Positions 34,066-38,354 of a DNA stretch of 64,000 nt are shown in pieces (position 1 is the first letter of the stretch; each line of letters starts with the position of its first letter). The translations under genes were made by a program, and so were the position numbers. The notes beneath the pieces are model-generated. The model saw only the letters and a list, made by a program, of their open reading frames with translations, was not told the origin of the DNA and did no database searches. Origin of the DNA: a virus. The DNA lies in IMG/VR virus record IMGVR_UViG_3300033984_000416, positions 57,433-121,432 of that record. The stretch is one strand, 5' to 3'.

Positions 34066-35123
34066 TATATTGTACTACCTATTAATTTGAAAGTTCCAGT
34101 TGCCAAGAAATTTTTATATACCCTTATATTTATTACATCATTTGCGAAAATAATCAAAGGACTACTTAAAACCGTACCATCAAATACTCCAACGCCATTA
34201 ACAGTAATTACAATTCTAGAAAGATACTCAATATCAACTAGTTGTGTAAAATTTACATCATATAATGCTGTAAACGAGAATTGTGGTTCTGATTTTGGTT
34301 TCCAAACAAAACTATAAGTAACAACGTTACCCTTTTTTAAAGGTTCAAAAATTACATTGTTATAAATCCTAGTATCATCAACTTCCATAGTTAAAACACT
34401 TCTATTTATCGTAGGTATAACTTCGTAATCTTCTTCATCTAGAATATAACCCAAAAGTTTCATTTCAAACATTTGAACATAAAATCTTCTATTTTCAAAA
34501 TCTTCAATATTACTCTCATCACCAATAGTTTCTAAATGCAACGGCATAGGGTGACCATTTACGTTGATGTAGCATTGTCTTGATTGGAAAGCTCTTTGTA
34601 TCTTACCATTAAACTTATTTAAGTCCTTCATTTTATTAGTAAACAATCTAACCTCGTAAGTCAAATCGACAGCAGTTGGTTGTGGTACCTTATATAAATC
34701 AACACCACGTCTAACACCATCCCATGTCGGAACTTTCATATATGTATATGTTTGTTTTCCTGGTATGTTCCATAATCCAGCTTGGTTTTGACCTTGTTGA
34801 ATATCTGGTTTTCTAACTATTGTGATAAACGGTAATTCTATGTTTTTGTATTTGTCTGAAAATTGCCATGTTCTACTAAATTCAGTCCATCTTTGTATTG
34901 TTAAAAATATAACAGGAATCTTGGCACCATCAACACTAATAGAAAGACCTTCATCTAAATTCATAAATTCGACAAAGCTTTGGTCCATGTCTTCTTCCAT
35001 CACTCCTCTTGGTAAATAAGTTCCTTTGTCAGCAATTCCGTCAAGAATTTCTTGTCTTCTAGGGAAACCTATCTTACCTTGGGTAATGTCAATATTCGTT
35101 TTGTATCCTTTTGGCATTGCCAT
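34065..35123 (-). CDS. Tail completion / terminator protein (T4 gp15-like)
   Basis: KIPVIFLTIQRWTEFSRTW...LPFITIVR...KVPQPTAVDLTYEVRLFT; follows the gp14-like gene. Confidence 0.65.
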   Translation of the reverse strand: MAMPKGYKTNIDITQGKIGFPRRQEILDGIADKGTYLPRGVMEEDMDQSFVEFMNLDEGLSISVDGAKIPVIFLTIQRWTEFSRTWQFSDKYKNIELPFITIVRKPDIQQGQNQAGLWNIPGKQTYTYMKVPTWDGVRRGVDLYKVPQPTAVDLTYEVRLFTNKMKDLNKFNGKIQRAFQSRQCYINVNGHPMPLHLETIGDESNIEDFENRRFYVQMFEMKLLGYILDEEDYEVIPTINRSVLTMEVDDTRIYNNVIFEPLKKGNVVTYSFVWKPKSEPQFSFTALYDVNFTQLVDIEYLSRIVITVNGVGVFDGTVLSSPLIIFANDVINIRVYKNFLATGTFKLIGSTI

Positions 35124-35142
35124 AGTTTCATCTTTTTATTAA

Positions 35143-35661
35143 TTACATTCCTCTGAATTCACTAGCGTCAACACTTGCACAAACAACTGTTCTAAACGCA
35201 CCTTTGTAACCCATAATGGTATGTATGTTATCGTAATTTTTAGCCCCATCATTGGAAACACTAAAATATCTAATTTCAGTTTCCGTAACAGGATAGCCGA
35301 TGTAATCACCGTAGCTAATTTCAGTATCTAACTCACTTAATTGAGCTTCGTATATACCAAAGGTTAATTGACCATCTTGAAGATATCTCAATCCACCATC
35401 CTTGTTATAAGCTTTATTCTCTGGAGCCGCCATAATTGGCATAATCTTAAGTTCTAAAGGTGGGAAAAATCTTATACCATCTTTAGATGCCTCACCATAC
35501 AAGTTATCAGATTCAGTCATTTCTCGATTAACTCGATATAAAATCACTGTAAAGTTTCCATCACCTTCAATAGCCTCACGACCCATTTCAATTTCTAATT
35601 GAAAATCCGATTCAGAGAAAAATTTATTAATTCTCGTAATAGGTACAATAGATTTAGACAT
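35143..35661 (-). CDS. Neck / head closure protein (T4 gp14-like); true start probably MSKSIVPITRINKFF
   Basis: VILYRVNREMTESDNLYGEA...FGIYEAQLSELDTEISYGDYIGY; ATG at 35661 overlaps the endonuclease stop; AAAGGAG at 35668-35674. Confidence 0.7.
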   Translation of the reverse strand: MSKSIVPITRINKFFSESDFQLEIEMGREAIEGDGNFTVILYRVNREMTESDNLYGEASKDGIRFFPPLELKIMPIMAAPENKAYNKDGGLRYLQDGQLTFGIYEAQLSELDTEISYGDYIGYPVTETEIRYFSVSNDGAKNYDNIHTIMGYKGAFRTVVCASVDASEFRGM

Positions 35662-36301
35662 ATTTAACTCCTTTCTTTTTTGACGGAACACCTTTTTTAG
35701 TTTCCGAAATTTTTGTTATTACTTCTTTAGAATGGTTTTTACCATAAAAATGATTTTTTTTACCCATATGTGATTCGCTCATTTTTTTCTTTGTTTCTTC
35801 ACTTAATTTAACACCTTTTTTAGCGTTTCTTATTTTTTCTTTAGTTTCCTCAGACATTGGTTTTCGTTCAATAAGTTTTTGTGATTCACTCATTTTTTGT
35901 TTAGTTTCATTACTAATATTTTTACCTTTATGTGCATTACTTAATTTTTCTTTATGTTCTTCAGTGAATTTAATACCGATTCTAACCTCACTCATTTGTT
36001 TTTTTGTTTCTTCAGAATGTTTACGATTTAACATCGTCCCATTAGTTCCACCAAGACAAATATTATAACCAATTAATTTATCTGTCGATTTATATTTTAA
36101 AATATAATTTTGCTCCATTTCATTCAGTTCTTTTTGTGTGTCACATTGACACAAAATTTCTTTTTTAAAATTTATTAAACCATATTTTTTTATTGCTTTT
36201 TTAATTAAATCACCAGAACCAAAATAATTAAAATTGTTTTTACTGTCTTGACCAATATAGATTTTACCATTCACTAAATTTGTTGTTTTATATATTACCA
36301 T
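35654..36301 (-). mobile_element. Free-standing GIY-YIG homing endonuclease (Seg-like) with NUMOD3 repeats
   Basis: MVIYKTTNLVNGKIYIGQ...YFGSG..IKKAIKKYG..NFKKEIL; repeated H/MSEETKxKMS motifs and NHFYGKNHS. Confidence 0.9.
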
Positions 36302-36359
36302 AATAATTTTTTTAAATAAATATCATAATTATTCTATTTATGTAAGTTATTGGTGTTAT

Positions 36360-36404
36360 TTATTTATTGATACGTGTGATTGGTGTTATTTTCTTGTTGT
36401 CCAT
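36360..36404 (-). pseudogene. Stranded original 5' end of the gp14-like gene: MDNKKITPITRINK*
   Basis: Translated by hand; matches IVPITRINK of the intact gene; has its own late-type motif at 36414-36421. Confidence 0.75.
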
Positions 36405-36512
36405 CGTTTTTATTATAAATATTTATCTTTTGATTAATATCACCAAACACTTGATTTTTATTTATTTTTTTCTTATATTTAGATATAATTACCAGGATAA
36501 AACAAAAAGACA

Positions 36513-38354
36513 TTGATAAATTTAGACGACATACGAGGACATTCAGCAATTTCACTTCTAGAAGATTATGAAGGTATTAACCCATATCTTAAGAAATTGA
36601 AGATTGCTTACTTAAAGAATAAAAAATTGGCTCTTACTGAGAACCAATCAAAATATATATTAGATAATCACGATAGACAACCACAATACATCAATCGAGT
36701 GATTGGTATTACTAGCTATCTAGGTGATGAGTTAAAAAAACAAAATGAATTATCATTTACACCAGAGAAAATTCTAATCGAATTTATACTGGCCGATACT
36801 GAAAAAACATTTCACGTTTACGGTAAGCTTAAACAAAACCAAAAAGAATCTAAGATGTATTGGTTACCTAAAACACAGGTAACTGATGACCCATATTTTG
36901 AAGAAATAAAAGTAGAAGTAGATTTTACAAAATACAACGATATCTTAGCTGAGACGGGTAAAAAACTTTATGAGCATCAAGAAGACGGAATTAAGTTTTT
37001 ATTGTCTAGAAACGGCTGTATATTAGCTGATGACATGGGATTGGGTAAATCTATACAATCTATTATTGCTGCGTTAGAAAGCGGAGCCAAAAAGATACTA
37101 GTTGTTTGCCCATCTTCAACAAAGATTAACTGGGAAAGAGAAATAAACGTTTTTTGTGACGATACAGCAATCATTGATGGTAAAAAATGGAACGATGCTA
37201 AATTCACGATTATTAACTTTGATATTCTTAAAAATTTCCATACTCTTAGTACTGGTAAAAAAAGAAAAGAAGGCGAACCAGAAGAAGTATTAAATAGAGA
37301 ATTAGCCAACGCTGGTTTTGATTTAGCAATCATTGATGAGGCTCATTATTTGAAAAATAATGAAAGTATCCGTGGTAAGGTTATGGTAGAGTTATCAACA
37401 AAACACAACATTGATAAGGTATGGTTACTTACAGGAACACCTGTTGCCAATAGACCTATGGATTTCTTTAATCTATTGAAGATTATTAAGTCACCTATTG
37501 CCGATAACTGGAAACACTTTGCGGTTAGATATTGTGATGGAAGACAATTCTTTAGAACACTTAAAAATGGTCAAAGAAAACAAATATGGTTAACTGACGG
37601 TGCTAGTAATCTTGAAGAATTGGCATCGAAAACAAAAAACATTATAGTTAGACGTTTAAAGACTGAAGTATTGGATATGCCAGACAAGGTAATGACACCT
37701 ATGCATCATATGTTAGATAAAAAAGGGCTTAAAAATTATGAGTTGCTTTGGGAACAATATACCGAGAAAAGAAAATTAGAAGGTAAGAAAACGAATGAGT
37801 TACAAAAAGATTTGGTTGAACTTATTCTTTTAAGACAATTTATTGCTTTAGAGGCTATTCCTTATACTATTGAAATGGTTGAAAATGCGATTGAAATGGG
37901 ACGTAAGGTAATTGTTTTTACAAGCTTTACCGAAGAATTAGAAATAATAACAAACCATTTTGGAAAGTTAGCCGTTAAACATAACGGGCCAATGACGACA
38001 ACACAAAAACAAAGGTCTGTAGATGCTTTCCAAACCAATCCAAAGGTTAAGGTTTTTGTTGGTAACATTAAATCAGCTGGTGTTGGTATTACACTTACTG
38101 AAGGTACTGTTGTGATATTCAATTCATTTGATTGGGTTCCTGGAAATAATGAACAGGCTGAAGATAGAGCGTTCCGTATTGGTCAAAAGAATGATGTTAA
38201 TGTTTACTACCAATTATTTGACGATACAATCTCAACTAGAATGTGGAATATGTTAAACAGTAAAAAAGATGTTATATCAACCATTATGGGTGATAAAAAA
38301 TTAACAGATGATGAAATAACTGCCTTATTGGTGGATGAATTAATAGCAGCATAA
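36513..38354 (+). CDS. SNF2-family (SMARCAL1/HARP-like) helicase/translocase
   Basis: ADDMGLGKS, DEAHYLKN, LLTGTP, GVGITLT, QAEDRAFRIGQ; TTG start. Confidence 0.92.
   Translation: MINLDDIRGHSAISLLEDYEGINPYLKKLKIAYLKNKKLALTENQSKYILDNHDRQPQYINRVIGITSYLGDELKKQNELSFTPEKILIEFILADTEKTFHVYGKLKQNQKESKMYWLPKTQVTDDPYFEEIKVEVDFTKYNDILAETGKKLYEHQEDGIKFLLSRNGCILADDMGLGKSIQSIIAALESGAKKILVVCPSSTKINWEREINVFCDDTAIIDGKKWNDAKFTIINFDILKNFHTLSTGKKRKEGEPEEVLNRELANAGFDLAIIDEAHYLKNNESIRGKVMVELSTKHNIDKVWLLTGTPVANRPMDFFNLLKIIKSPIADNWKHFAVRYCDGRQFFRTLKNGQRKQIWLTDGASNLEELASKTKNIIVRRLKTEVLDMPDKVMTPMHHMLDKKGLKNYELLWEQYTEKRKLEGKKTNELQKDLVELILLRQFIALEAIPYTIEMVENAIEMGRKVIVFTSFTEELEIITNHFGKLAVKHNGPMTTTQKQRSVDAFQTNPKVKVFVGNIKSAGVGITLTEGTVVIFNSFDWVPGNNEQAEDRAFRIGQKNDVNVYYQLFDDTISTRMWNMLNSKKDVISTIMGDKKLTDDEITALLVDELIAA

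Follow-up and report, generated by a model that had tools for sequence, protein, structure and literature searches.

Textbook accounts give the gene for an endonuclease three ways of residing in an essential gene: inside a self-splicing intron, inside an intein, or by the splitting of the host protein. The locus described here raises the question of how an endonuclease gene came to lie within the 5′ end of a phage virion gene. The answer that we consider very probable, from comparison of sequences, is a fourth option, namely a splicing-free homing element that replaces the start of the gene that it enters. The locus lies in a window of 64,000 nucleotides (the whole stretch of DNA that was analyzed) from a 121-kb IMG/VR contig with a CheckV completeness of 36%. 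The source is an uncultured jumbo (giant) phage that is known only from this metagenome contig.

All of the elements that an earlier note had read from the sequence were found on the minus strand where it had placed them (Table 1). The virion gene lies upstream of fibre-like genes, and a gene for a SNF2-type helicase is transcribed divergently from position 36513. The stub and the endonuclease open reading frame (ORF) are separated by 61 nt, and there is no spacing (0 nt) downstream of the ORF, which overlaps the rebuilt ATG of the 172-amino-acid gene by 8 nt. The endonuclease gene starts and stops with an ATG and a TAA of its own, and in the window the stub closes with TAA in a frame that differs from that of the endonuclease.

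Table 1. Features of the locus, in window coordinates
Feature	Position	Strand	Remarks
Native late-promoter-like motif, ATAAATATTTATAAT	36412-36426	-	before stub; the virion gene's own motif
Stub 1, MDNKKITPITRINK and stop	ATG 36404 to TAA 36360	-	displaced original start, 14 codons plus TAA
Stub 2, ITPITYINR	36333-36359	-	decayed copy of codons 6-14, in frame with stub 1
Second late-type motif, GATATTTAT	36316-36324	-	before endonuclease gene
GIY-YIG/NUMOD3 homing endonuclease gene, free-standing, 215 aa	35654-36301	-	
AAAGGAG, Shine-Dalgarno-like	35668-35674	-	within last endonuclease codons, 6 nt before rebuilt ATG
Replacement codons 1-14, MSKSIVPITRINK	35620-35661	-	cassette-borne
Complete 172-aa virion gene, rebuilt start MSKSIVPITRINKFF...	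35143-35661	-	ATG at 35661
Whole insert relative to empty site, 743 nt	35620-36362	-	between codons 14 and 15

The virion protein has 442 relatives in IMG/VR, and our analysis covered the best 80 of these 442 loci, in which the protein is 70%–88% identical in amino-acid sequence. The rebuilt ORF aligned with its relatives over its full length, and the alignment had 63 invariant columns. Neither this protein nor the product of the next gene matched a family in Pfam or PHROGs. A profile search of PDB sequences gave no match for the 172-aa protein, tblastn with that protein against GenBank phages found nothing, and blastn with the region against GenBank phages matched nothing but endonuclease genes elsewhere, and those weakly. 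Metagenomes are the only source from which the phage family is known. As to the earlier designation of the gene as a neck gene, Foldseek consistently placed neck or connector proteins of phages at the top of its matches to an AlphaFold model built from 26 homologues (the gp13/gp14 complex of T4, the connectors of Douge and P1, and the neck of phiKZ; E about 1e-3, TM about 0.4), but the model itself was poor (pLDDT 57), so that the word “neck” stays tentative. A neck- or connector-like protein is thus a plausible but weak assignment.

If the original start of the gene had been displaced, then relatives free of the endonuclease should have a contiguous gene, as the earlier note had predicted. 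Such a gene was seen in about 70 loci (54 distinct sequences) among the best 80 of the 442, nearly all of them with a gap of 103–137 nt, roughly 110–120 nt, between the helicase gene and the virion gene. Several of the endonuclease-free relatives start with the exact peptide of the stub, MDNKKITPITRINK-FF, and L001, L002, L006, and others begin MDNKKITPITRINKFF, that is, with the stub peptide and its continuation. Stub 1 encodes exactly the 14 residues with which the contiguous gene opens in L001, L002, and L006, and the intergenic region and stub DNA of the window are 84%–85% identical to these three loci. Neither a stub nor a second copy of the motif was present in any of the 54 distinct endonuclease-free relatives. 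Meanwhile, all nine of the distinct endonuclease-bearing loci had a stub, an endonuclease gene, and a rebuilt start that overlaps the end of the endonuclease gene by 8 or 11 nt. Presence and absence thus alternate at one fixed site, filled in nine distinct loci and empty in 54 among the best 80 of the 442, and the comparison bears out the proposal that the cassette sits inside the 5′ end of the gene, that the stub is the displaced original start, and that the cassette gives the gene a new one.

The inferred product of the inserted gene matched PHROG 314, “homing endonuclease” (E = 1.5e-46), and contained NUMOD3 in two stretches (87.6 bits, cutoff 20.4), which form a separate C-terminal DNA-binding module. 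Its putative GIY-YIG domain scored 22.3 bits against SegE_GIY-YIG (PF19835), about 3 bits short of the cutoff of 25; the corresponding endonuclease of L053 passes that cutoff with 26.0 bits, and the endonuclease of L078 passes PF01541 (30.8 bits, cutoff 22.6). Judged by sequence divergence, the gene is far younger than its flanks and is mobile, the signature of an active homing element, because its synonymous divergence is far lower than that of the flanks and it is under purifying selection (dN/dS of 0.11–0.29). Values of dS for the endonuclease and for the adjacent gene were 0.30 and 1.52 between the window and L023, 0.35 and 1.09 between the window and L081, 0.01 and 0.37 between L023 and L047, and 0.10 and 0.64 between L049 and L062. 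Likewise, the endonuclease DNA of the window is 90% identical to that of L023 and L047, whereas its flanks share only about 80% identity with any sequence and, among the best 80 of the 442 loci, are closest to those of the empty loci L001, L002, and L006.

The filled loci fall into several types. In type A1 (the window, L023, L047, and L081; endonucleases 86%–92% identical in amino-acid sequence to that of the window) and type A2 (L049 and L062; 73%–74%), the stub ends after codon 14 and the new start reads MSK[S/P]IVP. The stub of L053 also ends after codon 14; its endonuclease (66% identical) has an extra I-HmuI-like C-terminal module, and its new start reads MENKK. Type B (L052 and L078; about 50%) is a second endonuclease lineage, with a helix-turn-helix C-terminus, that lies about seven codons further in, the stub ending after about codon 21, and that has the same layout of stub and rebuilt start. 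In L078, stub and endonuclease are fused in frame in an ORF of 258 aa. Finally, L056 has an ORF of 45 aa in which a stub runs into the final 35 or so codons of a group-B endonuclease, and a rebuilt start comes next; from its sequence, this locus is a decay stage of the element.

Within group A, codons 1–7 (MSK[S/P]IVP) are nearly invariant in all cassettes, and codons 8–14 match the donor in some cassettes and the local backbone in others. Between the two subgroups, identity is 94% over the final 30 nt of the endonuclease gene together with codons 1–7, as against 77% for the endonuclease genes. Scanning with a DNA pattern for the start of the endonuclease gene revealed one further filled locus (L081/L148), its other matches being at other sites. 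When the flanks of all other GIY-YIG genes in the fetched loci were scanned for a peptide duplicated upstream and downstream, only this site was found; at a related GIY-YIG gene located elsewhere (L144:12758-13411), the upstream and downstream peptides had a similarity score of 43, which is the background level. We also considered L014 and L027, which are endonuclease-free and have MSK-type starts, as sources of the cassette start or as revertants. Their Ser codon is AGT, not TCT, and thus no link to the cassette start is shown. L027 (3925-4000) starts with MSKPITP and has about 65 extra nucleotides between the promoter motif and the ATG. These may be the footprint of a lost cassette, for which clear homology was not established.

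Where the cassette enters was evident from close relatives. In a tree of codons 22–172 from 63 genes, filled loci were scattered among empty ones, with at least 10 changes of state, and the set includes four near-isogenic pairs of filled and empty loci (L023/L050, 98% identical; L047/L075, 95% identical; L062/L059; and L053/L073). The window has no near-isogenic empty partner, its closest relative among the best 80 of the 442 being L001, with about 83% DNA identity. In L047/L075, L062/L059, and L023/L050, the left flanks have 0–3 mismatches per 50 nt up to the last 1–10 nt of the stub: Only the final wobble base of codon 14 differs from the empty partner in the stubs of L023 and L047, and three bases in the last nine differ between the stub of L062 and L059. 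On the right, the members of the pairs are heterologous only for the first 50 or so nucleotides after the new ATG. Thus, L047 is like L023 (the donor) in its new codons 1–14 and like L075 (the recipient) from codon 15 onward, and its stub is that of L075; L062 behaves in the same way with respect to L059, having empty-site sequence from codon 15. Past codon 7, L023 and L050 differ only in a short stretch at codons 17–22, and the rebuilt copy of L023 is identical to the empty locus L050 from −23 to +8. In L047/L075 and L062/L059, therefore, the displaced end matches element-free close relatives and the functional end is donor-like.

From these pairs it follows that the insert begins just past codon 14 of the stub and extends through the new codon 14, and that on either side the crossovers fall within about 10 nt of the codon 14/15 point. 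From the places of the crossovers we infer that the break would be at or very near the codon 14/15 boundary and be followed by little resection; the earlier suggestion that the stub marks the target site fits this mapping. A cut of the I-TevI kind, some 24 nt before the insertion point, is disfavored because the stub of L047 retains codons 8–14 of the recipient. The notion that L050 is a revertant of L023 that arose by precise loss was also set aside, as the differences at codons 17–22 argue against simple excision.

A mechanism that would account for this arrangement is as follows. The mobile unit consists of an endonuclease gene with its own late-type promoter motif, carrying a new start and 14 codons that overlap its last codons. 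In a mixed infection, the enzyme would cut a relative's uninterrupted gene near the codon 14/15 boundary. To the left of the break, the DNA would pair with the stub of the donor and, to the right, with the donor gene from codon 15, and repair would copy the cassette in, the stub thus serving as an upstream homology arm that abuts the break. The unit would thereby come to lie between codons 14 and 15, and upstream of it the old promoter and codons 1–14 would stay behind as a stub, and the virion gene would be read complete from the start in the cassette, on a transcript running through the endonuclease gene. The filled allele would escape cutting not by respelling but by the parting of its leader and codons 1–7 from the downstream half-site by about 0.75 kb.

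The earlier note had offered a different account of this escape, in which synonymous recoding of the replacement N-terminus blocks cutting and the wobble differences between stub and new copy confer immunity. The seven old and new codons that it listed do all differ in the window, and in the yeast WHO elements resistance does come from allelic sequence differences (PMC7282813). Nonetheless, we regard recoding as unlikely. Among 46 distinct empty-site sequences, codons 8–14 (21 nt) differ pairwise at 5.4 ± 1.8 positions, so that the 6 of 21 differences between stub and rebuilt copy in the window are population background (the 72nd percentile of endonuclease-free pairs); in both L023 and L081, stub and rebuilt copy differ at just 1 of 21 positions. 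The rebuilt 21-mers also occur in empty sites with 0–2 differences, and the six group-A rebuilt copies cannot be told from 48 empty sites by any position between −22 and +42 of the insertion point. The wobble differences therefore amounted to the usual divergence between alleles, one piece coming from a donor and the other being local, and their interpretation as resistant recoding did not hold up. Differences at the cut site, the source of resistance in elements of the WHO/mORF type, were thus not found here, a result that bears on that mechanism of resistance alone.

The first base that does discriminate is at −24 (G in the rebuilt copies, A in 47 of 48 empty sites), beyond which come the replaced codons 1–6 and the leader. 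If the rebuilt copy has an intrinsic resistance, its determinant would on this sequence comparison lie at least 24 bp upstream of the insertion point. GIY-YIG enzymes have long, two-part sites, as I-TevI does, and this would fit a distant determinant. A simpler explanation also fits: Only in empty sites are the native leader and codons 1–7 contiguous with the sequence beyond codon 14. The geometry predicted for the target is a site extending from at least −24 to beyond the insertion point.

Could the endonuclease gene instead be an ordinary intergenic one that happens to lie beside an unrelated, pre-existing tandem duplication of the 5′ end of the gene? In T4-like phages, free-standing genes of this kind normally lie between other genes (PMC2988022), and in L053 and L069 a different GIY-YIG gene does occupy an intergenic position just downstream. 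In none of the 54 endonuclease-free relatives among the best 80 of the 442, however, was there a stub; a stub in such relatives is what the earlier note had named as speaking against its proposal. The only stub without an intact endonuclease gene, that of L056, is accompanied by an endonuclease remnant, and the two endonuclease lineages each have a stub with its own end point. We therefore consider a coincidence of this kind very improbable.

Least credible of all is the joining of stub to gene by a group I intron, an intein, or ribosomal bypass: What is probably an intein does occur in the neighboring helicase gene within this phage family, but a search of Rfam with positions 34900–36700 (E ≤ 1) gave no match and hence no group I intron, the 61 nt after the stub and the overlap of the ORF with the new ATG are all that flanks the endonuclease, its own ATG and TAA and the out-of-frame TAA of the stub are not those of an intein, and, the downstream ORF being full-length relative to its relatives, a joined product would contain PITRINK twice. 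On its own the downstream ORF is already complete, and the earlier statement that an intron is absent thus stands.

How, then, is the displaced gene expressed? The ATAAATATTTATAAT sequence has its only exact match within the window at this site and is conserved before the gene in endonuclease-free relatives; GATATTTAT is conserved before the endonuclease gene in all endonuclease-bearing relatives. Motifs of the ATATTTAT type occur before the stub, before the endonuclease gene, and before 11 of the 40 gene starts in the window. No promoter motif was found between the endonuclease gene and the rebuilt ATG, and transcripts of the gene are thus expected to begin at one of the late motifs, or at both, and to traverse the endonuclease gene. 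No terminator-like site was found between stub and gene on the coding strand. The AAAGGAG before the rebuilt start, a putative ribosome-binding site that also encodes endonuclease residues, is invariant in all six group-A cassettes and is the only Shine-Dalgarno-like sequence among the 40 gene starts of the window. The other 39 starts lack such a sequence, and about a quarter have the ATATTTAT-type motif 10–25 nt before the ATG, which suggests that the phage uses very short leaders in a host without Shine-Dalgarno pairing.

The window also has a second stub. The 13-nt repeat ATTGGTGTTATTT occurs exactly twice in the window (36349-36361 and 36379-36391; 0.01 occurrences expected). Stub 2 travels with the cassette in A1 (L023, L047, and L081) and in L053 and is absent from A2 (L049 and L062), in which the single stub sits in the place of stub 2; the junction between stubs 1 and 2 varies in length (0, 3, 4, or 15 nt). 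Since AAYAAR is found at codons 3–4 and again at codons 13–14, a misaligned pairing, offset by 30 nt, could have made the tandem copy. Alternatively, by analogy with WHO arrays, the double stub may be the relic of an earlier invasion.

A further possibility, which we put forward tentatively and at somewhat less than even odds, is that the stub is a working part of a widespread and undescribed class of phage homing elements, both as a homology arm reaching the break and as the keeper of a native promoter and start that the endonuclease can borrow, as in the L078 fusion. If so, stacked stubs would be a record of successive invasions, and start replacement would be a third general way, beside introns and inteins and gene splitting, of residing inside essential phage genes.

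Precedents for the design come from fungi. The WHO elements of Torulaspora and Lachancea yeasts home into FBA1 (Coughlan et al. 2020, PMC7282813). Like the element described here, they home without splicing and replace one end of a gene (an essential one in the case of WHO); relics of the old end remain, sometimes stacked; the duplicated fragment is a second homology arm; and sites pass through a cycle of intact, decayed, and empty states (PMC7282813). They differ in that they act at the 3′ end of a nuclear yeast gene and encode an intein-derived LAGLIDADG-plus-zinc-finger protein (PMC7282813), whereas here it is the 5′ end of a phage gene that is replaced, and the GIY-YIG/NUMOD3 cassette must also bring a translation start. 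Also, the resistance shown for WHO is due to allelic base differences at the cut site (PMC7282813); here, none of the base differences near the insertion point sets filled alleles apart from empty ones. The mORFs of fungal mitochondria (in Allomyces macrogynus atp6 and in Glomus atp6, atp9, cox2, and nad3) are likewise endonuclease ORFs, of the LAGLIDADG or GIY-YIG class, that bring in a gene terminus of foreign origin; the original terminus is kept as an unused duplicate that matches element-free close relatives, and the ORFs are sometimes in frame with the host gene (PMC3630166), as is the stub fusion of L078. The mORFs act on C-termini, in organelle genomes (PMC3630166); the present case is their mirror image, an N-terminus that needs a start codon and read-through transcription. 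As in WHO elements and mORFs, the endonuclease gene is flanked by a duplicated gene end, and the copy joined to the body of the gene is the functional one.

Among phages, the closest parallels are in T4 and its relatives. SegF and SegG, which carry out “intronless homing,” resemble the present, probably GIY-YIG, enzyme in class and domain logic, and their genes do so in having late or middle promoters, cotranscription with neighboring genes (predicted here), presence/absence polymorphism, and coconversion of flanks; they differ in being intergenic and in cutting the neighboring gene at a distance (PMC2988022). The mobE gene in nrdA of Aeh1 and mobA between T4 genes 39 and 60 are, as here, endonuclease genes inside conserved coding sequence in the absence of an intron or intein, but they split the gene into two polypeptides that must reassemble (PMC2988022). 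At our locus, in contrast, the ORF downstream has its full length, and what lies upstream is redundant, the 14 residues of the stub being repeated. A review of T4 covers intergenic, intron-borne, and gene-splitting endonuclease genes and does not mention a duplicated gene end (PMC2988022), and we found no description in the literature of such start-replacing elements in a phage or at a 5′ end. The design is thus known for 3′ ends, from WHO elements and mORFs; what is new here is its occurrence at a 5′ end, in a phage, and with a GIY-YIG enzyme.

The stages sampled comprise empty sites, two cassette subgroups, a second lineage seven codons away, an in-frame fusion, a stacked old stub, and a decayed remnant. 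In genome annotation, a short “orphan” ORF that lies upstream of an endonuclease gene may be the displaced start of another gene, and in the evolution of structural genes endonucleases can drive N-terminal mosaicism.

Finally, we note other insertions in the vicinity. The SNF2 helicase gene has an insert of about 370 aa, in frame after DDMGLGK (Walker A), in L003 (930-3884, minus strand), L009, L021–L023, L041, L063, L075, and L077; the helicase gene of the window is without it. On the basis of LAGLIDADG-like motifs and an end of the form ...THN, this insert is probably an intein with a homing endonuclease. A second helicase insert, of about 1 kb, is located near residues 553–571 in L024, L027, L034, and L049. 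The different GIY-YIG gene of L053 (4513-5298) and L069 (4532-5296), which encodes a protein of 254–261 aa, lies between the 172-aa gene and the next gene and has no stub. With this intergenic gene, the short stretch is evidently a hotspot in which three endonuclease lifestyles are found.
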